A stretch of 58,460 nucleotides of DNA from Escherichia phage SHIN8, in sequence record PP627280.1. One strand, given 5' to 3'. Each line of letters opens with the position of its first letter. Positions within the stretch are counted from its first letter, which is position 1. A program made the position numbers and the translations under genes. The notes under the pieces are model-generated. The model made no database searches. It saw only the letters and a list, made by a program, of their open reading frames with translations, and was not told where the DNA came from. Below, piece after piece: positions 559 to 56,916 of the stretch.

Positions 559-2095
559 TAACATGCCGCGAGTCGTCTGGAAACCACATCCAGGTTCACA
601 GACACTCGCTCTATCCTGCCCCGCTGATATTATCCTATACCACGGAACTCGCGGTCCCGGAAAAACGGACTGCCAGCTTATGCGTTTCCGTAAGAATGTT
701 GGTGTAGGGTACGGTAAATTTTGGAAGGGTATTATATTCGACCGTGAATATAAAAACCTTGATGACCTTGTAACTAAATCCCAGCGTTGGTTTCCTGAAT
801 TTAAAGACGGGGCTAAATTCCTTAGCTCTAAGTCTGATTATAAATGGGTTTGGCCTACTGGTGAAGAGCTACTGTTCCGTGTTGCTTGTAAAGAAAAGGA
901 TTACTGGTCTTATCACGGTCACGAATACCCATTTATCGGATGGAACGAATTAACAAAATATCCGGACGGGCGTTTGTTTGAAGCTATGATGTCCTGTAAC
1001 CGTTCATCTTTCTTACCAGAAGATAACCCAATTATCAATCCAGATGGTACGGTCACATATTTACCGGATATCCCTCTTGAAGTGTTTGCTACCAGTAACC
1101 CGTTTGGCGCGGGGCATAACTGGGTTAAGAAACGCTTCATTGACGCTGCACCGATGGGTAAAATACTCAGGAAGACTACGAGAGTGTTTAACCCGAGGAC
1201 GCAGAAAGACGAAGATGTGGTTACGACGCAATGCCATATCTTTGGTTCGTACCGTGAAAACAAAAACCTAAGTCCAAAATATATTGCAGAACTTATGTCT
1301 ATCACAGACCCGAACAAGCGTGCTGCATGGTTGGGCGGGAGCTGGGATATTACATCCGGTGGTATGTTCGATGATCTGTGGCGTAGCACTGTTCACAAAG
1401 TACGACCATTCCCGATTCCAGCGAGTTGGAAGATTACACGTTCTTTCGACTGGGGTTCTTCAAAACCGTTCTCTGTCGGTTGGTGGGCTATTAGTGATGG
1501 TTCGGATGTTGTGCGTGAAGATGGCACTACATTCTCCACGGTCCGCGGTGACCTGTTTAGGATTAACGAATGGTATGGGACCAACGGTAAAACAAACGAA
1601 GGTCTACATTTGCTGGACTCAGAAATTGCAAGCGGTATACTGGAGCGGGAATTGGCCTGGGGTATACACGATCGTGTAGTTCCTGGTCCTGCGGATAACT
1701 CCATTTGGGATCTGGAGAACAATAACTCCACCGCTGCAACAATGGCGAAGAAAATTCGTCTTAACGGGAAGTTATACGACGGTATACATTGGAAGCGCAG
1801 TGATAAGTCTGCTGGGTCACGTAAACGGGGCTGGCAGAAAATGCGTGAGTTCCTTAAAGCTGCACTGCGGGAAGATGCGAACGGTAAACCTTTGCCCGGT
1901 CCGCGCGAGAATCCAGCAATGTACATTTTTGATAACTGCAACTATTTCTTTGAGCTGGTTCCAAGTCTACCTCGCGATGAAGTAGATCAGGACGACGTTG
2001 ATACGGAATGTGAAGACCATATGGGTGATGAAGTTCGTTATATGGTTCTGGATCAAGCTGTTTATACAGGTGTTGGCAAAACTATCGGTATTTAA
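536..2095 (+). CDS. terL: terminase large subunit
   Basis: 519 aa; N-terminal Walker A-like HGTRGPGKTD; size and position before portal. Confidence 0.8.
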   Translation: MELNRQPDNMPRVVWKPHPGSQTLALSCPADIILYHGTRGPGKTDCQLMRFRKNVGVGYGKFWKGIIFDREYKNLDDLVTKSQRWFPEFKDGAKFLSSKSDYKWVWPTGEELLFRVACKEKDYWSYHGHEYPFIGWNELTKYPDGRLFEAMMSCNRSSFLPEDNPIINPDGTVTYLPDIPLEVFATSNPFGAGHNWVKKRFIDAAPMGKILRKTTRVFNPRTQKDEDVVTTQCHIFGSYRENKNLSPKYIAELMSITDPNKRAAWLGGSWDITSGGMFDDLWRSTVHKVRPFPIPASWKITRSFDWGSSKPFSVGWWAISDGSDVVREDGTTFSTVRGDLFRINEWYGTNGKTNEGLHLLDSEIASGILERELAWGIHDRVVPGPADNSIWDLENNNSTAATMAKKIRLNGKLYDGIHWKRSDKSAGSRKRGWQKMREFLKAALREDANGKPLPGPRENPAMYIFDNCNYFFELVPSLPRDEVDQDDVDTECEDHMGDEVRYMVLDQAVYTGVGKTIGI

Positions 2096-8718: not shown

Positions 8719-9642
8719 ATGGCTACAGGTTCACGTTATTCGTGTTACTACGTCAAAGAAGATGTAAGCAACACTACGCCAGCGAGTGCGAAGTTTACTC
8801 CGTTCCGTGTGACCAGCTCCGGTCTGGACATTAATATTGCAACGCTGGAATCTGAAGAACTGCGCGATGACGCTGAAACTGCGGACTTCCGCCTCGGTGC
8901 TCGCAGTGTTGAAGGTACAGTAACGGGCGAAATGTCCTTCGGCACCTTCGATGATCTTATTGCTGCTGCACTTCGTGGGGAGTGGCAAGACAACGTCCTT
9001 AAAGGCGGTATTATCCGTCAGTCATTTACTTTCGTAGACTATAACGCAGATCTACCGTCAGGTAAATATACAATTTATCGCGGTTGCGAAGTTAATAGCA
9101 TGACTTTCTCATTGTCTGCGGAAAACATGACCACAGTGGAATTCGGTATTGTTGGTCGCTCAATGGAAATTGCGGAATCGCTCCCATCTGGTGCAACTAT
9201 CAAAGAGCGTACAACTACTTCACCGATGGATGGTTTCTCCGGCCGCTTGCTGGAAAACGACGAAGAAATCAGCGTTATTACGGAAATCGGTCTTACCGTT
9301 GAAAACGATATTGCACCACGCTTTGTTGTTGGTTCTAAGTTCTCCATTGAACCGTCCGCTGGTCGTCGTGCGGTAACTGGTACAGCTAACGTGTACTTCC
9401 TGGATAACAAGCTGCGTATGAAGTATCTGGATGAAGTGGAAACTTCAATCAAGTTTGATCTGATTGACCCAAGCAATCCGGAACAAAAATACACTGTGGA
9501 AATGCCTCGCGTGAAGTTCACTGAAGCTCCACGTCCTATTGACGGCGAAGGGGATATCATGCTTAATATGGGCTACCGCGGATTGCTGGACCCAACAACC
9601 GCAAGTTCCATCAAAATTACCCGCGTTGTAGCGGGAGCCTAA
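8719..9642 (+). CDS. major tail protein
   Basis: 307 aa, directly upstream of chaperone and tape measure. Confidence 0.55.
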   Translation: MATGSRYSCYYVKEDVSNTTPASAKFTPFRVTSSGLDINIATLESEELRDDAETADFRLGARSVEGTVTGEMSFGTFDDLIAAALRGEWQDNVLKGGIIRQSFTFVDYNADLPSGKYTIYRGCEVNSMTFSLSAENMTTVEFGIVGRSMEIAESLPSGATIKERTTTSPMDGFSGRLLENDEEISVITEIGLTVENDIAPRFVVGSKFSIEPSAGRRAVTGTANVYFLDNKLRMKYLDEVETSIKFDLIDPSNPEQKYTVEMPRVKFTEAPRPIDGEGDIMLNMGYRGLLDPTTASSIKITRVVAGA

Positions 9643-9651
9643 GGATAAGAA

Positions 9652-10059
9652 ATGACCGACACCAAAAAAGCCAAAGTTGTAGTAGCTAAAAGCTTCCGTG
9701 ATTTTAAAACTGTGAGCCGGGCTAACGACCCGGCAAACACTAAGCCAATGAATGTGGTTATTCCTGGTGTAGGCGACACTGGCGAAAAACTCTACATTCG
9801 TAGCCGCTACTGCACAGAGTACCGTGATGCTGAACTGAAAGCACAGCGTCAACTGTTGGCTCTTATGCAGGGTAAAGACGGTGAAGTAACGGATGCTATG
9901 AAGGAAGATATCCTTACCCGTTCACTGTGTAACCTTGTAGCAGGTTGGACTTTTGACGAGCCACCGACTGTTGACAACGTGTTTGAGTTCTTAACGGAGA
10001 ACCCAACTGTCCGAGAAGATCTTAACGTATTTGCCGCTAAAGATAGTAATTTTTTCTAA
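9652..10059 (+). CDS. tail assembly chaperone (gpG-like)
   Basis: 135 aa, ends at slippery T_TTT_TTC immediately before stop; upstream of tape measure. Confidence 0.6.
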   Translation: MTDTKKAKVVVAKSFRDFKTVSRANDPANTKPMNVVIPGVGDTGEKLYIRSRYCTEYRDAELKAQRQLLALMQGKDGEVTDAMKEDILTRSLCNLVAGWTFDEPPTVDNVFEFLTENPTVREDLNVFAAKDSNFF

Positions 10060-10457
10060 AAGCGCGCAGACAGTTAATTGATAAGAAGATCCTCCAATGG
10101 GAACTAAATAGCAAAGTCCCCGGCGGGGGATCTTCTTTATTATCGCAACTGCAAAAGGTTGAGGAACAGTCTGGTAAGACGCCACCTAAGCTTAAAGAAT
10201 ATCGGGAAAAGGAAATACCGGTTTGCTTTGAATACCTGTCTACTTTATTTGATGACATTTACACTGGAGGGGATTTTAGTTATACAGAATTGCACAGCTA
10301 TCAGGTAACAATGGGCTTACATCTTCAACCGTACGAATGCGAAATACTGCGACAGCTATGGCTTGAAAAGCGCGTGTCTGAAGCTGAACAAAATGCTAAA
10401 CTCATGGAAAGTCAAATGCAAAATCAGAATAAAGGTAGAAGGAAAAGGAGAAGGTAA
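9652..10457 (+). CDS. tail assembly chaperone -1 frameshift fusion (gpGT-like)
   Basis: -1 frame is open for 133 codons from slippery heptamer 10050-10056 to TAA at 10455-10457, which overlaps the tape measure ATG. Confidence 0.5.
10050..10056 (+). other. putative -1 programmed frameshift slippery heptamer T_TTT_TTC
   Basis: canonical X_XXY_YYZ in the zero frame of the chaperone gene; nested inverted repeats 10083-10137 downstream. Confidence 0.5.
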
Positions 10458-14161: not shown

Positions 14162-14745
14162 TGCTATTCAGTCCTTTCAGCGATACGCTTCTTGACGCAA
14201 TGGAGCAAACAAATGTTAGCCTGGTTCTTGCTGCGGAGATTGACTTTCCTTCTGGTGTAACGCGTGTGCATACTGGGACAGGGGTTGTTGTTATTAATGG
14301 TCAGACTTTCCTTGGCGTTGGTACTCTTGGGGACGTTGGGTCAGTGACTGAGGAAAACAGCACTAGCTCCAGCACAATGTCCATGGCGCTTAGCGGTCTG
14401 GACATGAGTCTTGTTGGGGAGACATTAAACGAAGAAGTTATCGGGCGTAATGTTGTTTGCTATATTGCAGTGATGAACGATCAAGGTAACGTCATTGCTG
14501 CTAATATTTTATTTGAAGGTTTTATTACAGACACCGCATTACAAGCAGGTCAACAGAATGCCTTGAGTTATGTTATTTCCAACGTGTTTGAGCGTTGGTC
14601 ACAAGGTTTACCGGATCGCTATACAGATGAAAGTCAACAGCGTTTATATCCAGGCGACCGTTTCTTTAGATACATTGCACAAATGGCTGAACGTTCAATC
14701 TTTTGGGGGAGTAAGAAAGATGCGCCAGGGTTCTCCTATGAGTAA
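14161..14745 (+). CDS. minor tail protein
   Basis: 194 aa, ATGA-type overlap with neighbours. Confidence 0.5.
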   Translation: MLFSPFSDTLLDAMEQTNVSLVLAAEIDFPSGVTRVHTGTGVVVINGQTFLGVGTLGDVGSVTEENSTSSSTMSMALSGLDMSLVGETLNEEVIGRNVVCYIAVMNDQGNVIAANILFEGFITDTALQAGQQNALSYVISNVFERWSQGLPDRYTDESQQRLYPGDRFFRYIAQMAERSIFWGSKKDAPGFSYE

Positions 14746-42455: not shown

Positions 42456-42977
42456 TTAACCATTGTTGGAAAATTCACCGTGCAAAATTGCACGCATTTC
42501 CTTCAGCCATTGTGTCGCTTTATTTTTACCTTCATCATTAAATGGGAAATACCTATAATAGTTTTTACCATTCAGCCGAATCTGCGCTAACCAACTATTG
42601 CTGCTTTTAGATTTGTTATGTGTAAGACCTTTAACCCCGCTTGAATTGTTACTATATTTAAATCTATTATGTGCGTTCTGACTAGAATCGCAAGCCCTCA
42701 AATTGTATTGAGCATTATTCAGTTTATTGCAGTCATCATGATCAATTTCTTCAGGTTCTTCATCATAGAGCATTTTCCAGATTATACGGTGGACAAAATA
42801 TGAAATGCCATCAATCTTTGTTCTAAGATGACCAGTTGTATGAACCCATCCAACGCAAGATCCCTTTGGAGCTCTGTTGCTTCTATGAATCTTCCATGTT
42901 AATGCACCCGTCGACGGATCATAGTCAAACAGCTCCAGAAGCTGCTCTTGTGTAAGGTGTATAGGCTTCGCTTTCAT
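42456..42977 (-). CDS. HNH homing endonuclease with AP2-like DNA-binding domain
   Basis: 173 aa; HRIIW...DHDDCNKLNN HNH_3-type motif; AT-rich. Confidence 0.65.
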   Translation of the reverse strand: MKAKPIHLTQEQLLELFDYDPSTGALTWKIHRSNRAPKGSCVGWVHTTGHLRTKIDGISYFVHRIIWKMLYDEEPEEIDHDDCNKLNNAQYNLRACDSSQNAHNRFKYSNNSSGVKGLTHNKSKSSNSWLAQIRLNGKNYYRYFPFNDEGKNKATQWLKEMRAILHGEFSNNG

Positions 42978-43787: not shown

Positions 43788-43816
43788 ATTTTATATTGAA
43801 GTTCTGTTGATCTCAA
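43788..43816 (-). promoter_or_regulatory. candidate sigma70-type promoter (TTGAGA-17-TAAAAT)
   Basis: hexamers read on minus strand, just downstream of a terminator and ~40 nt upstream of the 43748 start. Confidence 0.3.
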
Positions 43817-43820
43817 GGAA

Positions 43821-43852
43821 CAAAAAAGCCCAGGCATAAGGATTCCTGGGCT
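43821..43852 (-). terminator. intrinsic terminator
   Basis: AGCCCAGG-10 nt loop-CCTGGGCT followed by TTTTTTG on minus strand. Confidence 0.55.
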
Positions 43853-43958
43853 CTCTTGATTGTCGGATAGCTTACTTTGACTGCCGTCTTCGTCTATCCT
43901 GGCCTACTTGTACAGCCTCGCCAAAGGCTGGTGACGGTTTGGTACATCTGGCGCCGTC

Positions 43959-44095
43959 GCGTTAAACATCGTTCACATCGTTCAGTAAGTTGCGGGTTTA
44001 CCCTGTCCGCTCCAGGAAGCCCAGCGAAAGTAGTTGCTGTAAGGAGGTACAGCTACCGCTTTCAAGGGCTTGAGTTAAGCATCGTTCACTAAGTT
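43959..44095. repeat. direct repeats of CATCGTTCA(C/G)(TAAGTT) in a ~300-bp non-coding region
   Basis: copies at 43967-43976, 43977-43991 and 44080-44095. Confidence 0.7.
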
Positions 44096-44164
44096 AATGT
44101 TGTTAAATTGTTAAACCTCGTTAACTGTGGTTATCTTAAAGGATGCAGTCTTGAATGGCAAGCT

Positions 44165-44482
44165 TCAATTTTGCGCGGTCCCCTTTGCCGCTTTTGGTGC
44201 TAAAGTACCATCATTTAACATCAACTCAAAACCTGTTACTTGATCGGTTGGAACAATAGGGTAATTCATGATAGCCATGTGGATACAACACCCTCCATCA
44301 CATTCGTCGATGTATTCACTACCCCAATAGTATAAATGACCATCTCTTCGAATATCCATTGCTGTAGGGAAATCTACAAGAATTCTTTTGATTTCTTTTC
44401 GTCCTTCTTTATGCAGATTAGTTTCAATACGGATAAGCTCCGCATAAATTGCTTCACAGATAGTATTTACAATTCCCATCAT
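44165..44482 (-). CDS. hypothetical protein
   Basis: 105-aa ORF with CDGGCC cluster. Confidence 0.4.
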   Translation of the reverse strand: MMGIVNTICEAIYAELIRIETNLHKEGRKEIKRILVDFPTAMDIRRDGHLYYWGSEYIDECDGGCCIHMAIMNYPIVPTDQVTGFELMLNDGTLAPKAAKGTAQN

Positions 44483-44918: not shown

Positions 44919-45143
44919 ATGGTCATGCTGAATAAAGTATATAGCACAATGGGCGCGGATTATAAAGTTGTACGTCACCCGCGTACTGGTAAATTTGAAG
45001 CGTATATCCGTCCAATGGGTGAAAGTTGGATGTATTACGGTACTTATGATGACGCTGAGCAAGCTTATAAAGAAGCGGAAAGTGCGGCGGAAGCATCCGA
45101 AATTATGGCAAGGTACGACGTCGATGATTACTACCTTAACTAA
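44919..45143 (+). CDS. hypothetical acidic protein, lone plus-strand gene inside minus-strand block
   Basis: 74 aa; GGAGGA RBS; followed by terminator. Confidence 0.45.
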   Translation: MVMLNKVYSTMGADYKVVRHPRTGKFEAYIRPMGESWMYYGTYDDAEQAYKEAESAAEASEIMARYDVDDYYLN

Positions 45144-48733: not shown

Positions 48734-49401
48734 AAATCCTCCTAGTGAACTGGTAATGCTACTATAAAACAGCTATTAGCTATTTGCAAGAATTGTTTTA
48801 ATATAGTGCTTAGTGGCGTACATAGTGGGCAAAGCGTGTATAGTACGCCGTTACTGGCTTTGTAAAAGTTTGCCACTATAAACCACTATCCCACTATTCA
48901 CTAATTTTTTATTTTTACACAGAGCAAAGTTTATAAGTTTACGGTTTCCCCCTTATTACCCCGTTTTCAAACAAAGAATTAGTAGTAGTAGTGAAAACGT
49001 GTAAATGCCACTATCACTACTATACTATTAATTATCTGAAAAAAGTTGGGAGTATACCCCTATAAACTTATAAACTTTCAGTCAACTAACTAAAATAAAA
49101 CTAATTAAACTAATATTAATAATAACTATAAATATATATAAAATAAGGATTTATTATTATTGTATATAGTACCTATTGGTATTATGTGATGAGTTTATAG
49201 TCACTAAATAAACTCTATAAATTTTAATAAACCTGAACGGATGCAAATCAAAAACGAGAAGTCAAGTGCTTTTGAGGGAAATTTATTGAACTATTGTGAT
49301 CGGAAGGTATATCAAGCTATAATGCGCTTAATCGCGGGATATTGGAGGAGGACTTTATTGCGCGGTTAACCGGACCAGTAGGAGGGCTGGCCCGGAGTAG
49401 T
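48734..49401. repeat. AT-rich 668-bp non-coding region with repeated CTATAAA/CCACTAT motifs
   Basis: CTATAAA at ~48763, 48877, 49050, 49127, 49216 and inverted at 49194; CCACTAT x3 at 48872-48897; (TAG)4 at 48981-48992. Confidence 0.6.
48761..48789 (-). promoter_or_regulatory. candidate sigma70-type promoter (TTGCAA-17-TATAGT)
   Basis: hexamers on minus strand, -10 about 28 nt upstream of the 48733 ATG. Confidence 0.35.
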
Positions 49402-51460: not shown

Positions 51461-52025
51461 CGCACACAGCAGCACCACAGCGAGCTAATGTACATAGGTA
51501 ATGGTAATGCATTACCAACACACAACGAGCACGCTGTACCCCACAAAGCGGCGCTAATTTCAACACTCACAGGCTGTACGTTAACTCGTACGGCCTGCTC
51601 TGCTATATGCACGCCACATACGCAGCCAGCTCACAGTGAACATTAATATAATCACGAATGAAATGGATTCGTTTGGAAGAATAACAATTCTTGCAGTCAC
51701 AGACCGGTCCAATGAGCCGGCTCATAGACCCCACCTAGGATCATCAGGGTACTAATAATCACCCGAGGGCGCCTTATCCATCCTGATAGTAAGTCCACGC
51801 CTAAATCTCACCTGTCACATCCCTGTCCACCTACATCCATGACCCCACCTACCTTCTTTTTGAATATATTGCGCTCATCCTTTCTAAATATATGGATTTT
51901 GGTAGTAAATTCTGAGTCGTCAACGTATAATTCGTCTTGTAGCTGCTCCATAGCTATCATCTTTAAGCGGATGCAACCAATTTCTATCAGTTCACACCTG
52001 TTTTTAGAGCATCGAGGAGGTATTT

Positions 52026-56180: not shown

Positions 56181-56672
56181 ATGGAATGGTCTTCCATATT
56201 CACTTATTTGGATGGAAAGCTGTTCTGGAAAACTTCTAGAGGCGGTAGAGTTATACCAGGAGCACTTGCTGGTCATGCTACAAAGAGGGGTTACGTCAAA
56301 ATACGATGCGGTTGTAGTTTCTATCTAAGGCATCGCATAGTATGGGAAATGCATAATGGGTCCATTCCCGAAAATATGCAAATAGATCATATTAATCACG
56401 TTCCTGGAGATGATAGGATAGAGAATCTTAGATTAGTTACAAGTACATTAAATAATAGGAACGTAACCAGATCTAAGCTTAATAAGTCTGGTGTTACTGG
56501 TGTTTGCTATCACAAAAGAAATAAAAGATGGATAGCTTATATTAATACACAGGTCGGTCAAGTAAGACTTGGCTCTTTTATTAATTTTGAAGATGCTGTC
56601 AATGCTCGTAAAAATGCTGAGATTGTATATGAATACCACGAGAATCATGGAACTGAACGTAAGAGTTTTTGA
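56181..56672 (+). CDS. HNH homing endonuclease with AP2-like domain
   Basis: track ORF trimmed to ATG 56181; HRIVW...IDHINHVPGDDRIENLR HNH_3-type motif. Confidence 0.65.
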   Translation: MEWSSIFTYLDGKLFWKTSRGGRVIPGALAGHATKRGYVKIRCGCSFYLRHRIVWEMHNGSIPENMQIDHINHVPGDDRIENLRLVTSTLNNRNVTRSKLNKSGVTGVCYHKRNKRWIAYINTQVGQVRLGSFINFEDAVNARKNAEIVYEYHENHGTERKSF

Positions 56673-56916
56673 TGTTTTACCTTCACAATTAAACTGGAGG
56701 ATAAAAGATTTTTATAACTATGTCCAAGTGAACGATGATATTTTCTTCACTGATTGTGAGGAGGTAGCTATTGCGATTATTGATAGTCTGCAAACTAATG
56801 GCCTTGTTATCTTTTGGGATGGGGTTAACGATTACTCAGTATATTCAGAAAAGTATCTTGGCGAAGGGAACTCATTATTCGCTAAGTCCTGCGTTCTGGC
56901 ATTCCTTAATAGATAA
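56647..56916 (+). CDS. hypothetical protein
   Basis: internal ATG of track ORF 56569-56916; start uncertain. Confidence 0.3.
   Translation: MELNVRVFDVLPSQLNWRIKDFYNYVQVNDDIFFTDCEEVAIAIIDSLQTNGLVIFWDGVNDYSVYSEKYLGEGNSLFAKSCVLAFLNR

Follow-up and report, generated by a model that had tools for sequence, protein, structure and literature searches.

The genome of Escherichia phage SHIN8, a member of Seuratvirus (Queuovirinae) whose whole 58,460-base sequence is referred to here as the window, contains near 44 kb an island without an evident protein-coding gene but with a cluster of short direct repeats. The question raised by this locus is what the repeats and the island are for. The initial annotation had offered three answers: a replication origin with iterons, a binding array for a regulator, or a structured noncoding RNA (ncRNA). 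The last of these was supported by a promoter and a terminator, by covariation, and by the folding z-score, whereas the origin performed poorly in tests and the operator array was disfavored. It is highly likely that the island is a structured RNA gene, with a predicted product of ∼305 nucleotides (nt) and no protein.

The features that had drawn attention to the island were all recovered. The repeat CATCGTTCA is present on the plus strand at 43967-43975, 43976-43984, and 44080-44088, and two of the three copies have the TAAGTT extension that had been described (43976-43991, CATCGTTCAGTAAGTT; 44080-44095, CATCGTTCACTAAGTT). There are four exact copies of the 9-mer TGAACGATG in the window, compared to 0.55 expected, and three of the four fall within 122 bp (43967-44088). 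A repeat finder extended the unit to 16 nt, of which there are three copies (43961-43976, 44074-44089, and 44110-44125) at spacings of 113 and 36 nt. In the RNA sense, the repeat reads AACUUA(G/C)UGAACGAUG(C/U)UUAAC. The genes on both sides of the island are on the minus strand, as had been stated, and the terminator (43821-43858) and promoter-like site said to bound the island were both found, also on the minus strand. Two further features had not been described before: the island is rich in G+C (51 to 54%, compared to ∼38 to 40% in the flanks), and there is a second promoter-like site at its upstream edge. The 451 bases spanning the island are 100% identical to those of Escherichia phage WildeMaa (BASEL Bas23).

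The statement that the island has no credible open reading frame (ORF) also held. An ORF of 71 amino acids (aa) on the plus strand (43877-44092) is labeled a hypothetical protein in some GenBank records, matched no PHROG family, and is frame-shifted by small indels in Salmonella phage STP-SP5, with which it has only the eight residues TVWYIWRR in common. The frame of a 21-codon ORF on the minus strand, which starts inside a repeat, differs in STP-SP5 although the nucleotides are invariant. Because nucleotide conservation in STP-SP5 is not matched by conservation of the reading frame on either strand, the island does not appear to contain a conserved small-protein gene.

Nineteen distinct variants of the element were gathered from GenBank phages, IMG/VR, and metagenomes, and 18 of these were used in the alignment for structure tests. 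The promoter-like site at the upstream edge begins four bases past the stop codon of the upstream gene and places the predicted transcription start near 44126. Its hexamers are kept in all variants, and the spacer diverges. The −35 hexamer is TTGACA in ECP2304 and STP-SP5 and the −10 hexamer is TAATAT in STP-SP5, which are shifts toward the consensus. The consensus scan is weak evidence when taken alone, and the claim for this promoter depends more on conservation. At the other end of the island, VogelGryff-type variants have a different terminator hairpin (GCGCAGCG..CGUUGCGC) followed by a U-run at the equivalent position, and the promoter of the downstream gene retains in these variants both hexamers and the 17-nt spacing with a different spacer sequence. 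The gene that follows the island varies by isolate and may be a 100-aa ORF, a PDDEXK/RusA-like nuclease, or an HNH endonuclease; in VogelGryff-type phages the HNH endonuclease gene is directly downstream and the last third of the island has been replaced (∼50% identical). Because the downstream gene varies and has its own conserved promoter, the island is a unit of its own rather than the leader of one particular gene. The limits of the G+C-rich island coincide exactly with the upstream promoter-like site and the terminator. These features show that the island is laid out as a discrete minus-strand transcription unit, extending from a predicted promoter to an intrinsic terminator (Table 1).

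The RNA predicted from this unit is expected to be extensively folded. The minimum free energy z-score was −3.59 for the minus strand and −1.17 for the plus strand. A structure built by hand was tested against 500 column shuffles and against registers slid by 1 to 3 columns. The 57 proposed pairs were 98.5% paired across the 18 variants, and 12 of the pairs were altered on both sides, compared to 4.4 ± 1.3 in the shuffles, none of which (0/500) reached 12. The slid registers had just 1 to 3 two-sided pairs. At columns 74/114 and 81/107, G·U pairs persist in most or all of the sequences; read from the plus strand they would become A·C mismatches, and therefore the folding strand is the minus sense. 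The 3′ two-thirds of the RNA are 85 to 87% identical between the window and STP-SP5 (100-column windows, gaps included), compared to 52 to 63% for the upstream gene, and are at least as conserved as the flanking coding sequence. That the RNA surpasses the adjacent upstream gene in conservation makes it likely to matter during infection.

The support for individual helices differed. In the long hairpin P1, 6 of the 20 pairs have two-sided changes and 99.2% of the cells are paired; among close relatives there is also an independent two-step change from C-G through C·A (slur01) to U-A (IMGVR_000005). The P1 loop, ACCUCCUUA, is invariant in 19/19 variants, though the stem has been rebuilt in STP-SP5. 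This 9-mer is the exact anti-Shine-Dalgarno 3′ end of 16S rRNA and occurs twice in the window. The P3 stem is GUGG/CCAC in STP-SP5, and its loop is invariant save for one A/G position. P4 is invariant in all 18 aligned variants, including STP-SP5, which is 80% identical; because such invariance leaves no covariation possible, the P4 helix is only predicted. Two pairs of P5 change solely to G·U (A-U in Greed and SLUR76; G-C in STP-SP5), and its loop is invariant across variants. The CGCCA of the P4 loop is complementary to the UGGCG of the P5 loop, so that a kissing contact between the two is possible, as is dimerization via the GGCGCC palindrome; the kissing pairs are invariant. The 3′ module of VogelGryff-type phages, for all its divergence, keeps P6 as AAAUAAGG/CCUUAUUU, with three pairs changed on both sides. 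The enclosed hairpin P6b is GUC..GAC in PLYYY01 and GCU..AGU in the VogelGryff type, with two pairs changed on both sides. Three other helices were considered and rejected: the long-range helix P2 (CCUGG/CCAGG), which came from energy minimization and had no covariation; a leader-to-P6 helix (GAUGCUUA/UAAGCUAUC), which had the same origin, likewise had no covariation, and competes with the supported P6; and an RNAalifold hairpin inside the tandem repeats, which is broken in two variants without compensation.

The position of the repeats within this structure suggests what they are. The modules are arranged in the order leader, R1, P1, P3, R2 plus R3, the 3′ domain P4-P5-P6, and the terminator. 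R1 is located before P1, R2 and R3 lie in tandem after P3, and the degenerate R0 is near the 5′ end; none is in a supported pairing. The 113-nt spacing of the repeats equals the length of the R-P1-P3 module. Repeat copy number varies, with three tandem 9-nt units in Dru_SM1. In a variant from a metagenome, L021, there are ∼105 extra nt between repeat copies, and this insert aligns end to end with module 1. The two have in common a TKAACGATGCTT start, CCWGGA, an ACWGGAUAAAC loop, and an AACU...UUAAYGAUG end. The long hairpin of the insert is similar in size to P1 but has the loop GUUCGUU in place of ACCUCCUUA, and its P3-type stem is fully compensated, with CUGU/ACAG for GCGG/CCGC and the loop ACUGGAUAAAC. 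Because the L021 insert aligns with module 1, the predicted RNA is built of paralogous modules of which the presumed iterons are the boundaries. The comparison shows the repeats, contained within AACUUAsUGAACGAUGyUUAAC, to be predicted unpaired joints of the 113-nt module and the site at which length varies.

Table 1. Positions of the predicted RNA gene, its parts, and associated features (window coordinates unless a contig is named)
Feature	Coordinates	Strand	Description
RNA gene promoter	44161..44133	−	TTGCCA (44161-44156), 17-nt spacer, TAAGAT (44138-44133); consensus scan
Predicted ncRNA, ∼305 nt	44126..43822	−	Predicted start to end of terminator U-run
5′ leader	44126..44072	−	A+U-rich, apparently unpaired; UUAAC repeats, R0, R1
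R0	44125-44110	−	Degenerate repeat in leader, GUUAACGAGGUUUAAC
R1	44095-44074	−	Repeat in leader, before P1, AACUUAGUGAACGAUGCUUAAC
P1	44071..44017	−	20-bp interrupted hairpin; 9-nt loop ACCUCCUUA at 44048-44040
P3	44010..43992	−	4-bp hairpin GCGG/CCGC; 11-nt loop ACAGGRUAAAC
Linker with tandem R2 and R3	43991..43961	−	AACUUAC-UGAACGAUG-UGAACGAUG-UUUAAC
P4	43958..43933	−	5-bp hairpin GACGG/CCGUC; 16-nt loop CGCCAGAUGUACCAAA with palindrome GGCGCC
P5	43930..43913	−	Hairpin CAGCCU/AGGCUG; loop UGGCG
P6 domain	43899..43865	−	GGAUAG/CUAUCC; encloses P6b, GAC-GGCA-GUC (43888-43879)
Intrinsic terminator	43856..43822	−	AGAGAGCCCAGG-loop-CCUGGGCU, then U6
Downstream-gene promoter	43816..43788	−	TTGAGA-17-TAAAAT; outside the RNA
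Second module of L021	Contig ERZ1026901 NODE-154, about 1150-1260		Diverged; long hairpin plus P3-type hairpin
Non-coding gap	48734-49401		668 bp, 33% G+C; longer than any other non-coding gap in the window; coincides with the minimum of the cumulative GC skew

The RNA gene is present in every sampled Seuratvirus phage. The window copy and the STP-SP5 copy, each used as a BLAST query, retrieved an identical set of 34 phage records, all of them Seuratvirus-like, and pattern scans found the element in 3 IMG/VR contigs and 7 metagenome contigs, which also represent close Seuratvirus relatives only. There was no match in Escherichia coli genomes or plasmids. The lone match in a genome collection, a 22-mer within an ORF of 1202 aa in a Planctomycetaceae metagenome-assembled genome, was rejected as due to chance. 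No Rfam 15 family matched the window at the gathering threshold, and between 43700 and 44250 only chance-level matches were returned at E values up to 10. An Rfam search of related loci matched no family, ARAGORN found nothing, and retrieval based on the primase yielded no intermediate lineages.

One other phage genus has a counterpart at the same place. Between the primase-helicase and RusA-like genes, Providencia phage PSTCR7 (NC_071001) has a 640-bp unannotated gap (9580-10217), in which 9690-10050 is strongly folded (z = −5.3) and an intrinsic terminator is found at 10019-10046. The folded segment is preceded by GUGAA at a 9-nt period and by UAACUUAGUGAAC, which is also present in the window leader. 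Covariance-model searches of the syntenic regions of PSTCR7, JenP2, and JG054 gave a weak match to the leader only: at 11.4 bits, with UAACUUAGUGAAC in common, the leader is the only part that matches the PSTCR7 region, and the folded part of PSTCR7 is unrelated in sequence to the window RNA. The PSTCR7 gap, for which PSTCR4 was the only other match (97% identical), is probably a second ncRNA gene, either unrelated or highly diverged. Literature searches found no description of an ncRNA or an origin in Seuratvirus or Queuovirinae. From these sequence comparisons, the element is a new RNA family among phage-encoded structured RNAs, seen only in Seuratvirus-like phages and with a positional analogue in Craquatrovirus. 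In Seuratvirus phages the locus is unannotated or is annotated as a hypothetical protein on the wrong strand. These phages, which include CAjan, Seurat, and several BASEL members, are in wide use for studies of anti-phage defense. The RNA would extend the short list of structured RNAs from virulent phages, and its invariant anti-Shine-Dalgarno loop and repeat-bounded modules are handles for experiments in the tractable E. coli K-12 system.

On balance, we favor the explanation in which the repeats are RNA joints and the structured RNA acts in trans. The RNA would be transcribed by host RNA polymerase early in infection and would work in trans, probably as a regulatory or decoy RNA. Its recognition sites would be the single-stranded repeats and the invariant loops of P1 (anti-Shine-Dalgarno), P3, and P4 (16 nt). 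Our preferred guess, a tentative one, is that it might pair with the Shine-Dalgarno regions of mRNAs or titrate an RNA-binding factor. Of the proposals, pairing with ribosome-binding sites is the most concrete, owing to the anti-Shine-Dalgarno loop, and a bound protein is suggested by the constant small hairpin within a modular build. An apparent match to the anti-Shine-Dalgarno loop at 56750-56775 was rejected because it is inside an 89-aa coding frame, which also contains the fourth copy of TGAACGATG (56729). Apart from the anti-Shine-Dalgarno 9-mer, mimicry of 16S or 23S rRNA was also rejected, as the number and length of shared k-mers were not above those of shuffled sequences (P ∼0.1 to 0.3).

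A more elaborate version of a trans-acting RNA, which we regard as a long shot, is an array of "handle plus variable loop" units of ∼105 to 113 nt each, cut at the UGAACGAUG boundary. In each unit, a hairpin common to all modules (the ACWGGRUAAAC loop) would bind a protein, and an apical loop particular to that module would set the target. The universal module would display the anti-Shine-Dalgarno tail of the ribosome and so blanket the ribosome-binding sites of the host; alternatively, it might be a decoy that engages an immune nuclease or a host factor able to recognize the 3′ end of 16S rRNA. If such an array exists, it would constitute a new class of programmable or mimicry RNA in virulent phages.

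Several observations weigh against a trans-acting structured RNA. The promoter matches the consensus at 9 of 12 positions in the window, a level that shuffled sequence also attained in the scan. Most variants are ≥96% identical, so that the diversity is shallow, and there are few independent covariation events, because most of the two-sided changes come from STP-SP5 and the VogelGryff-type 3′ module. P4, the P4-P5 kissing pairs, and all of the loops are invariant, and neither P2 nor the leader-to-P6 helix covaries. No phage translation-initiation region scored above shuffled controls as a target, and the mRNAs of the phage itself would also be subject to competition from an exposed anti-Shine-Dalgarno loop. 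Furthermore, the similarity across genera is in the leader and repeat region and not in the folded core, a pattern that also fits a site acting at the DNA level.

One such DNA-level function would be that of an origin, in which the repeats (TGAACGATG and TTAAC) are iterons to which an initiator of the phage binds; the NrS-1-like primase-helicase, whose gene is 1 kb upstream, is one possibility. The adjoining A+T-rich stretch would be unwound, and transcription from the promoter would activate the origin or yield a primer or R-loop RNA with a meaningful fold, for which ColE1 RNA II and the T4 and T7 origins are analogues. We consider this explanation unlikely, even though the repeats are significantly clustered beside an A+T-rich stretch and a promoter within the replication gene block and a related repeat-bearing leader (UAACUUAGUGAAC and the GUGAA period), followed by a different folded core, is found at the syntenic place in PSTCR7. 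The alpha primase-helicase of satellite phage P4 binds TGTTCACC iterons (P4 ori/crr), and GTGAAC/GTTCAC is presumably common to the P4 iteron and the window repeat; PDB and Pfam searches with the phage primase-helicase gave no sequence match to P4 alpha. The low-G+C stretch (44095-44135, ∼30 to 38% G+C) is present, but it doubles as the promoter and RNA leader. Iterons were taken to be at least three direct repeats of ∼17 to 22 bp in a regular, helically phased array, whereas the unit here is short (a 9-nt core, 16 to 22 nt when extended) and is spaced at 9, 36, and 104 to 113 nt without regular phasing. The copies are separated by hairpins under strand-specific selection of the RNA type, repeat positions 1 to 3 drift (TGA, TTA, TAA, AAA), and the number of copies is not constant. 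The repeats are unchanged where the primase-helicases are 99% or only 77% identical to that of the window, which is a weak test; CSP1C and SLUR63 are 98% identical across the element. The cumulative GC skew has its extrema at ∼20.5 and ∼49.5 kb, is flat through 44 kb with no switch there, and tracks gene orientation. The gap at the skew minimum (Table 1), in which there are several direct repeats of the CTATAAAC type and an inverted repeat of 16 nt without mismatches (48926-48941 / 49063-49078), is a better A+T-rich, repeat-rich candidate and, from its sequence, a more conventional one for a replication origin or an early promoter cluster. Thus, the island resembles iteron origins such as lambda ori and P4 ori/crr in that its direct repeats occupy a non-coding island, with a primase-helicase gene nearby and an A+T-rich neighbor, but it differs from them in the sparse, irregular spacing, the RNA-type covariation between copies, the lack of a skew signal, and the lack of covariation with an initiator. 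For clustered short repeats in a G+C-rich island that ends in a terminator, joints of RNA modules are a better reading than iterons. The same repeats might instead be DNA sites for a phage or host regulator of the two flanking promoters, and R0 and R1 are indeed just downstream of the RNA gene promoter. One candidate regulator would be the small AP2-like protein encoded nearby by a divergent gene, the positional counterpart of which in PSTCR7 abuts the repeat region. This gene (44919-45143, plus strand; 74 aa) is located between the primase-helicase gene and the RNA and belongs to PHROG 22269, of unknown function. However, the AP2 match is below the Pfam threshold (19.5 bits, compared to a cutoff of 33.3), R2 and R3 are 150 nt inside the transcribed, folded region and distant from both promoters, the repeats have no dyad symmetry, and the extra module of L021 duplicates the repeat together with RNA hairpins and not with a promoter. 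An operator array is therefore quite improbable.

Two further explanations retain an RNA but have it act in cis or as part of a longer message. The folded region might be a leader, such as an attenuator, a riboswitch-like element, or a processive antiterminator, that sets read-through into the downstream nuclease and nucleotide-metabolism genes, by analogy to HK022 put RNA and boxA/Nus complexes. The succession of a promoter, a long structured leader, an intrinsic terminator, and then genes is the layout of an attenuator, and the upstream operon lacks a convincing terminator, so that read-through transcripts would also meet the element. Within the leader, the 12-mer TTTAACAATTTA (44104-44115, minus strand) is identical to part of the E. 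coli rrn leader (rrnH), covering the 3′ portion of boxA plus the next four bases, an identity with a chance of ∼0.003 relative to dinucleotide shuffles. The gammaproteobacterial boxA consensus is GYTCTTTAANA, in which C4T and T6C are loss-of-function changes (PMC5725501). The window matches it at only 8 of 11 positions (GAGGTTTAACA), with G at the critical C4, and STP-SP5 differs (GAGTCTTAACA). Protection from Rho by boxA and Nus factors is useful on an untranslated transcript (PMC7665894, PMC5725501), and the element is like the boxA/Nus elements of rrn leaders, lambda nut, and CRISPR-array leaders in having the rrn-leader 12-mer near the 5′ end of such a transcript; it is unlike them in that the window lacks the critical 5′ half (YTC), which shows no conservation among variants. 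Moreover, the downstream genes have their own conserved promoter, the gene that follows varies between isolates, no alternative antiterminator pairing with covariation was found, and no Rfam riboswitch or leader family was matched. A cis-acting leader thus seems doubtful. It is highly improbable that the folded region is simply the 3′ untranslated region (3′-UTR) of the upstream operon mRNA, acting as a stabilizer or as the source of a small RNA, with the promoter being incidental. No canonical terminator separates the island from the gene that ends at 44165, which implies that transcripts of this gene should extend to 43822, and the 9/12 match of the RNA gene promoter is modest. However, the promoter hexamers are conserved and are nearer to the consensus in diverged relatives, the PSTCR7 analogue follows a gene on the opposite strand and cannot be a 3′-UTR there, and ∼300 nt of covarying, multidomain structure far exceeds what a stabilizer needs.

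The surroundings of the RNA gene and several other loci in the window also had features of note. A conserved hairpin, GCGG-N9-CCGC (44175-44191), is located within the final codons of the 105-aa gene, a short distance upstream of the RNA promoter, and is terminator-like on the plus strand; STP-SP5 retains the stem and changes the loop. VogelGryff and Dru_SM1 have homing-endonuclease polymorphism around the element, and an HNH/AP2-type ORF in the window (42456-42977) is missing from STP-SP5, where the alignment has a gap. The HNH gene of the VogelGryff type is a different one and, together with the replaced 3′ RNA module, looks like a co-conversion tract from an unsampled donor lineage. Two other gaps have no ORF of at least 50 aa. 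The gap at 51567-51838 (49% G+C) is accompanied by an exact 11-nt direct repeat, GACCCCACCTA, at 51727 and 51841, and that at 14162-14569 (45% G+C, z = −0.5) is probably missed coding sequence, because it is not unusually structured. On the plus strand at 56648-56916, an 89-aa ORF that starts MELNVRVF... overlaps the end of an HNH gene. In view of this ORF, the call of a 222-aa ORF at 56771 is probably a false start, with the muralytic-like domain predicted to begin near MALQPRGIRNNNPGNIR.

Comparison with known RNA systems places the predicted RNA near several of them. It is similar to the CsrB/CsrC and RsmY/RsmZ sponges in size, in having repeated modules, and in the CAGGAUA-like motifs in or beside its loops, but it has only one or two modules and no Rfam match. 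A CsrA sponge was rejected: the A of GGA is freely polymorphic (GGA/GGG) at both CAGGRUA sites, the P3 loop and the P6 site, and phage Seurat has GGG at both, which disfavors CsrA binding. Like ToxI antitoxin RNAs and CRISPR-like arrays, the RNA has a tandem module bounded by repeats, the number of which varies between isolates. Unlike in those systems, the module is ∼105 to 113 nt rather than ∼36 or 28 + 32 nt, and there are only one or two. No toxin or cas gene adjoins the RNA, the neighbors of which are variable and comprise small proteins of unknown function and a PDDEXK nuclease or an HNH endonuclease. Likenesses to the type I-E CRISPR repeat (GGAUAAACC, 9 nt and polymorphic; GCGCCAG) and to the ops element (GCGGTAG) were judged to be due to chance, such resemblances being short, polymorphic, or located in compensated stems.

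Phi29 prohead RNA (pRNA) and the T4 species 1 and 2 RNAs have no sequence or Rfam similarity to the element, which is in the replication/early block and not at a genome end, and no link from the RNA to packaging genes was found. They are comparable in being phage encoded, ∼100 to 300 nt long, and composed of multiple helices, and the complementary or palindromic loops (CGCCA/UGGCG and GGCGCC) could allow loop-loop contacts as in pRNA rings. With ∼305 nt, at least six helices, no target found in the phage scan, and no homology to small RNAs (sRNAs) in Rfam, the RNA also differs from Staphylococcus RNAIII and RsaE and from the Hfq-type sRNAs of enterobacteria. It is like them in being a unit of its own from promoter to terminator that ends in a U-tailed hairpin, and it shares with them an invariant loop complementary to UAAGGAGGU and an A/U-rich unpaired region with AAC/AAU triplets. 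The sequence features of Hfq-type sRNAs, namely a U-tailed terminator and A-R-N or A/U-rich single-stranded sites, are likewise predicted in the RNA.

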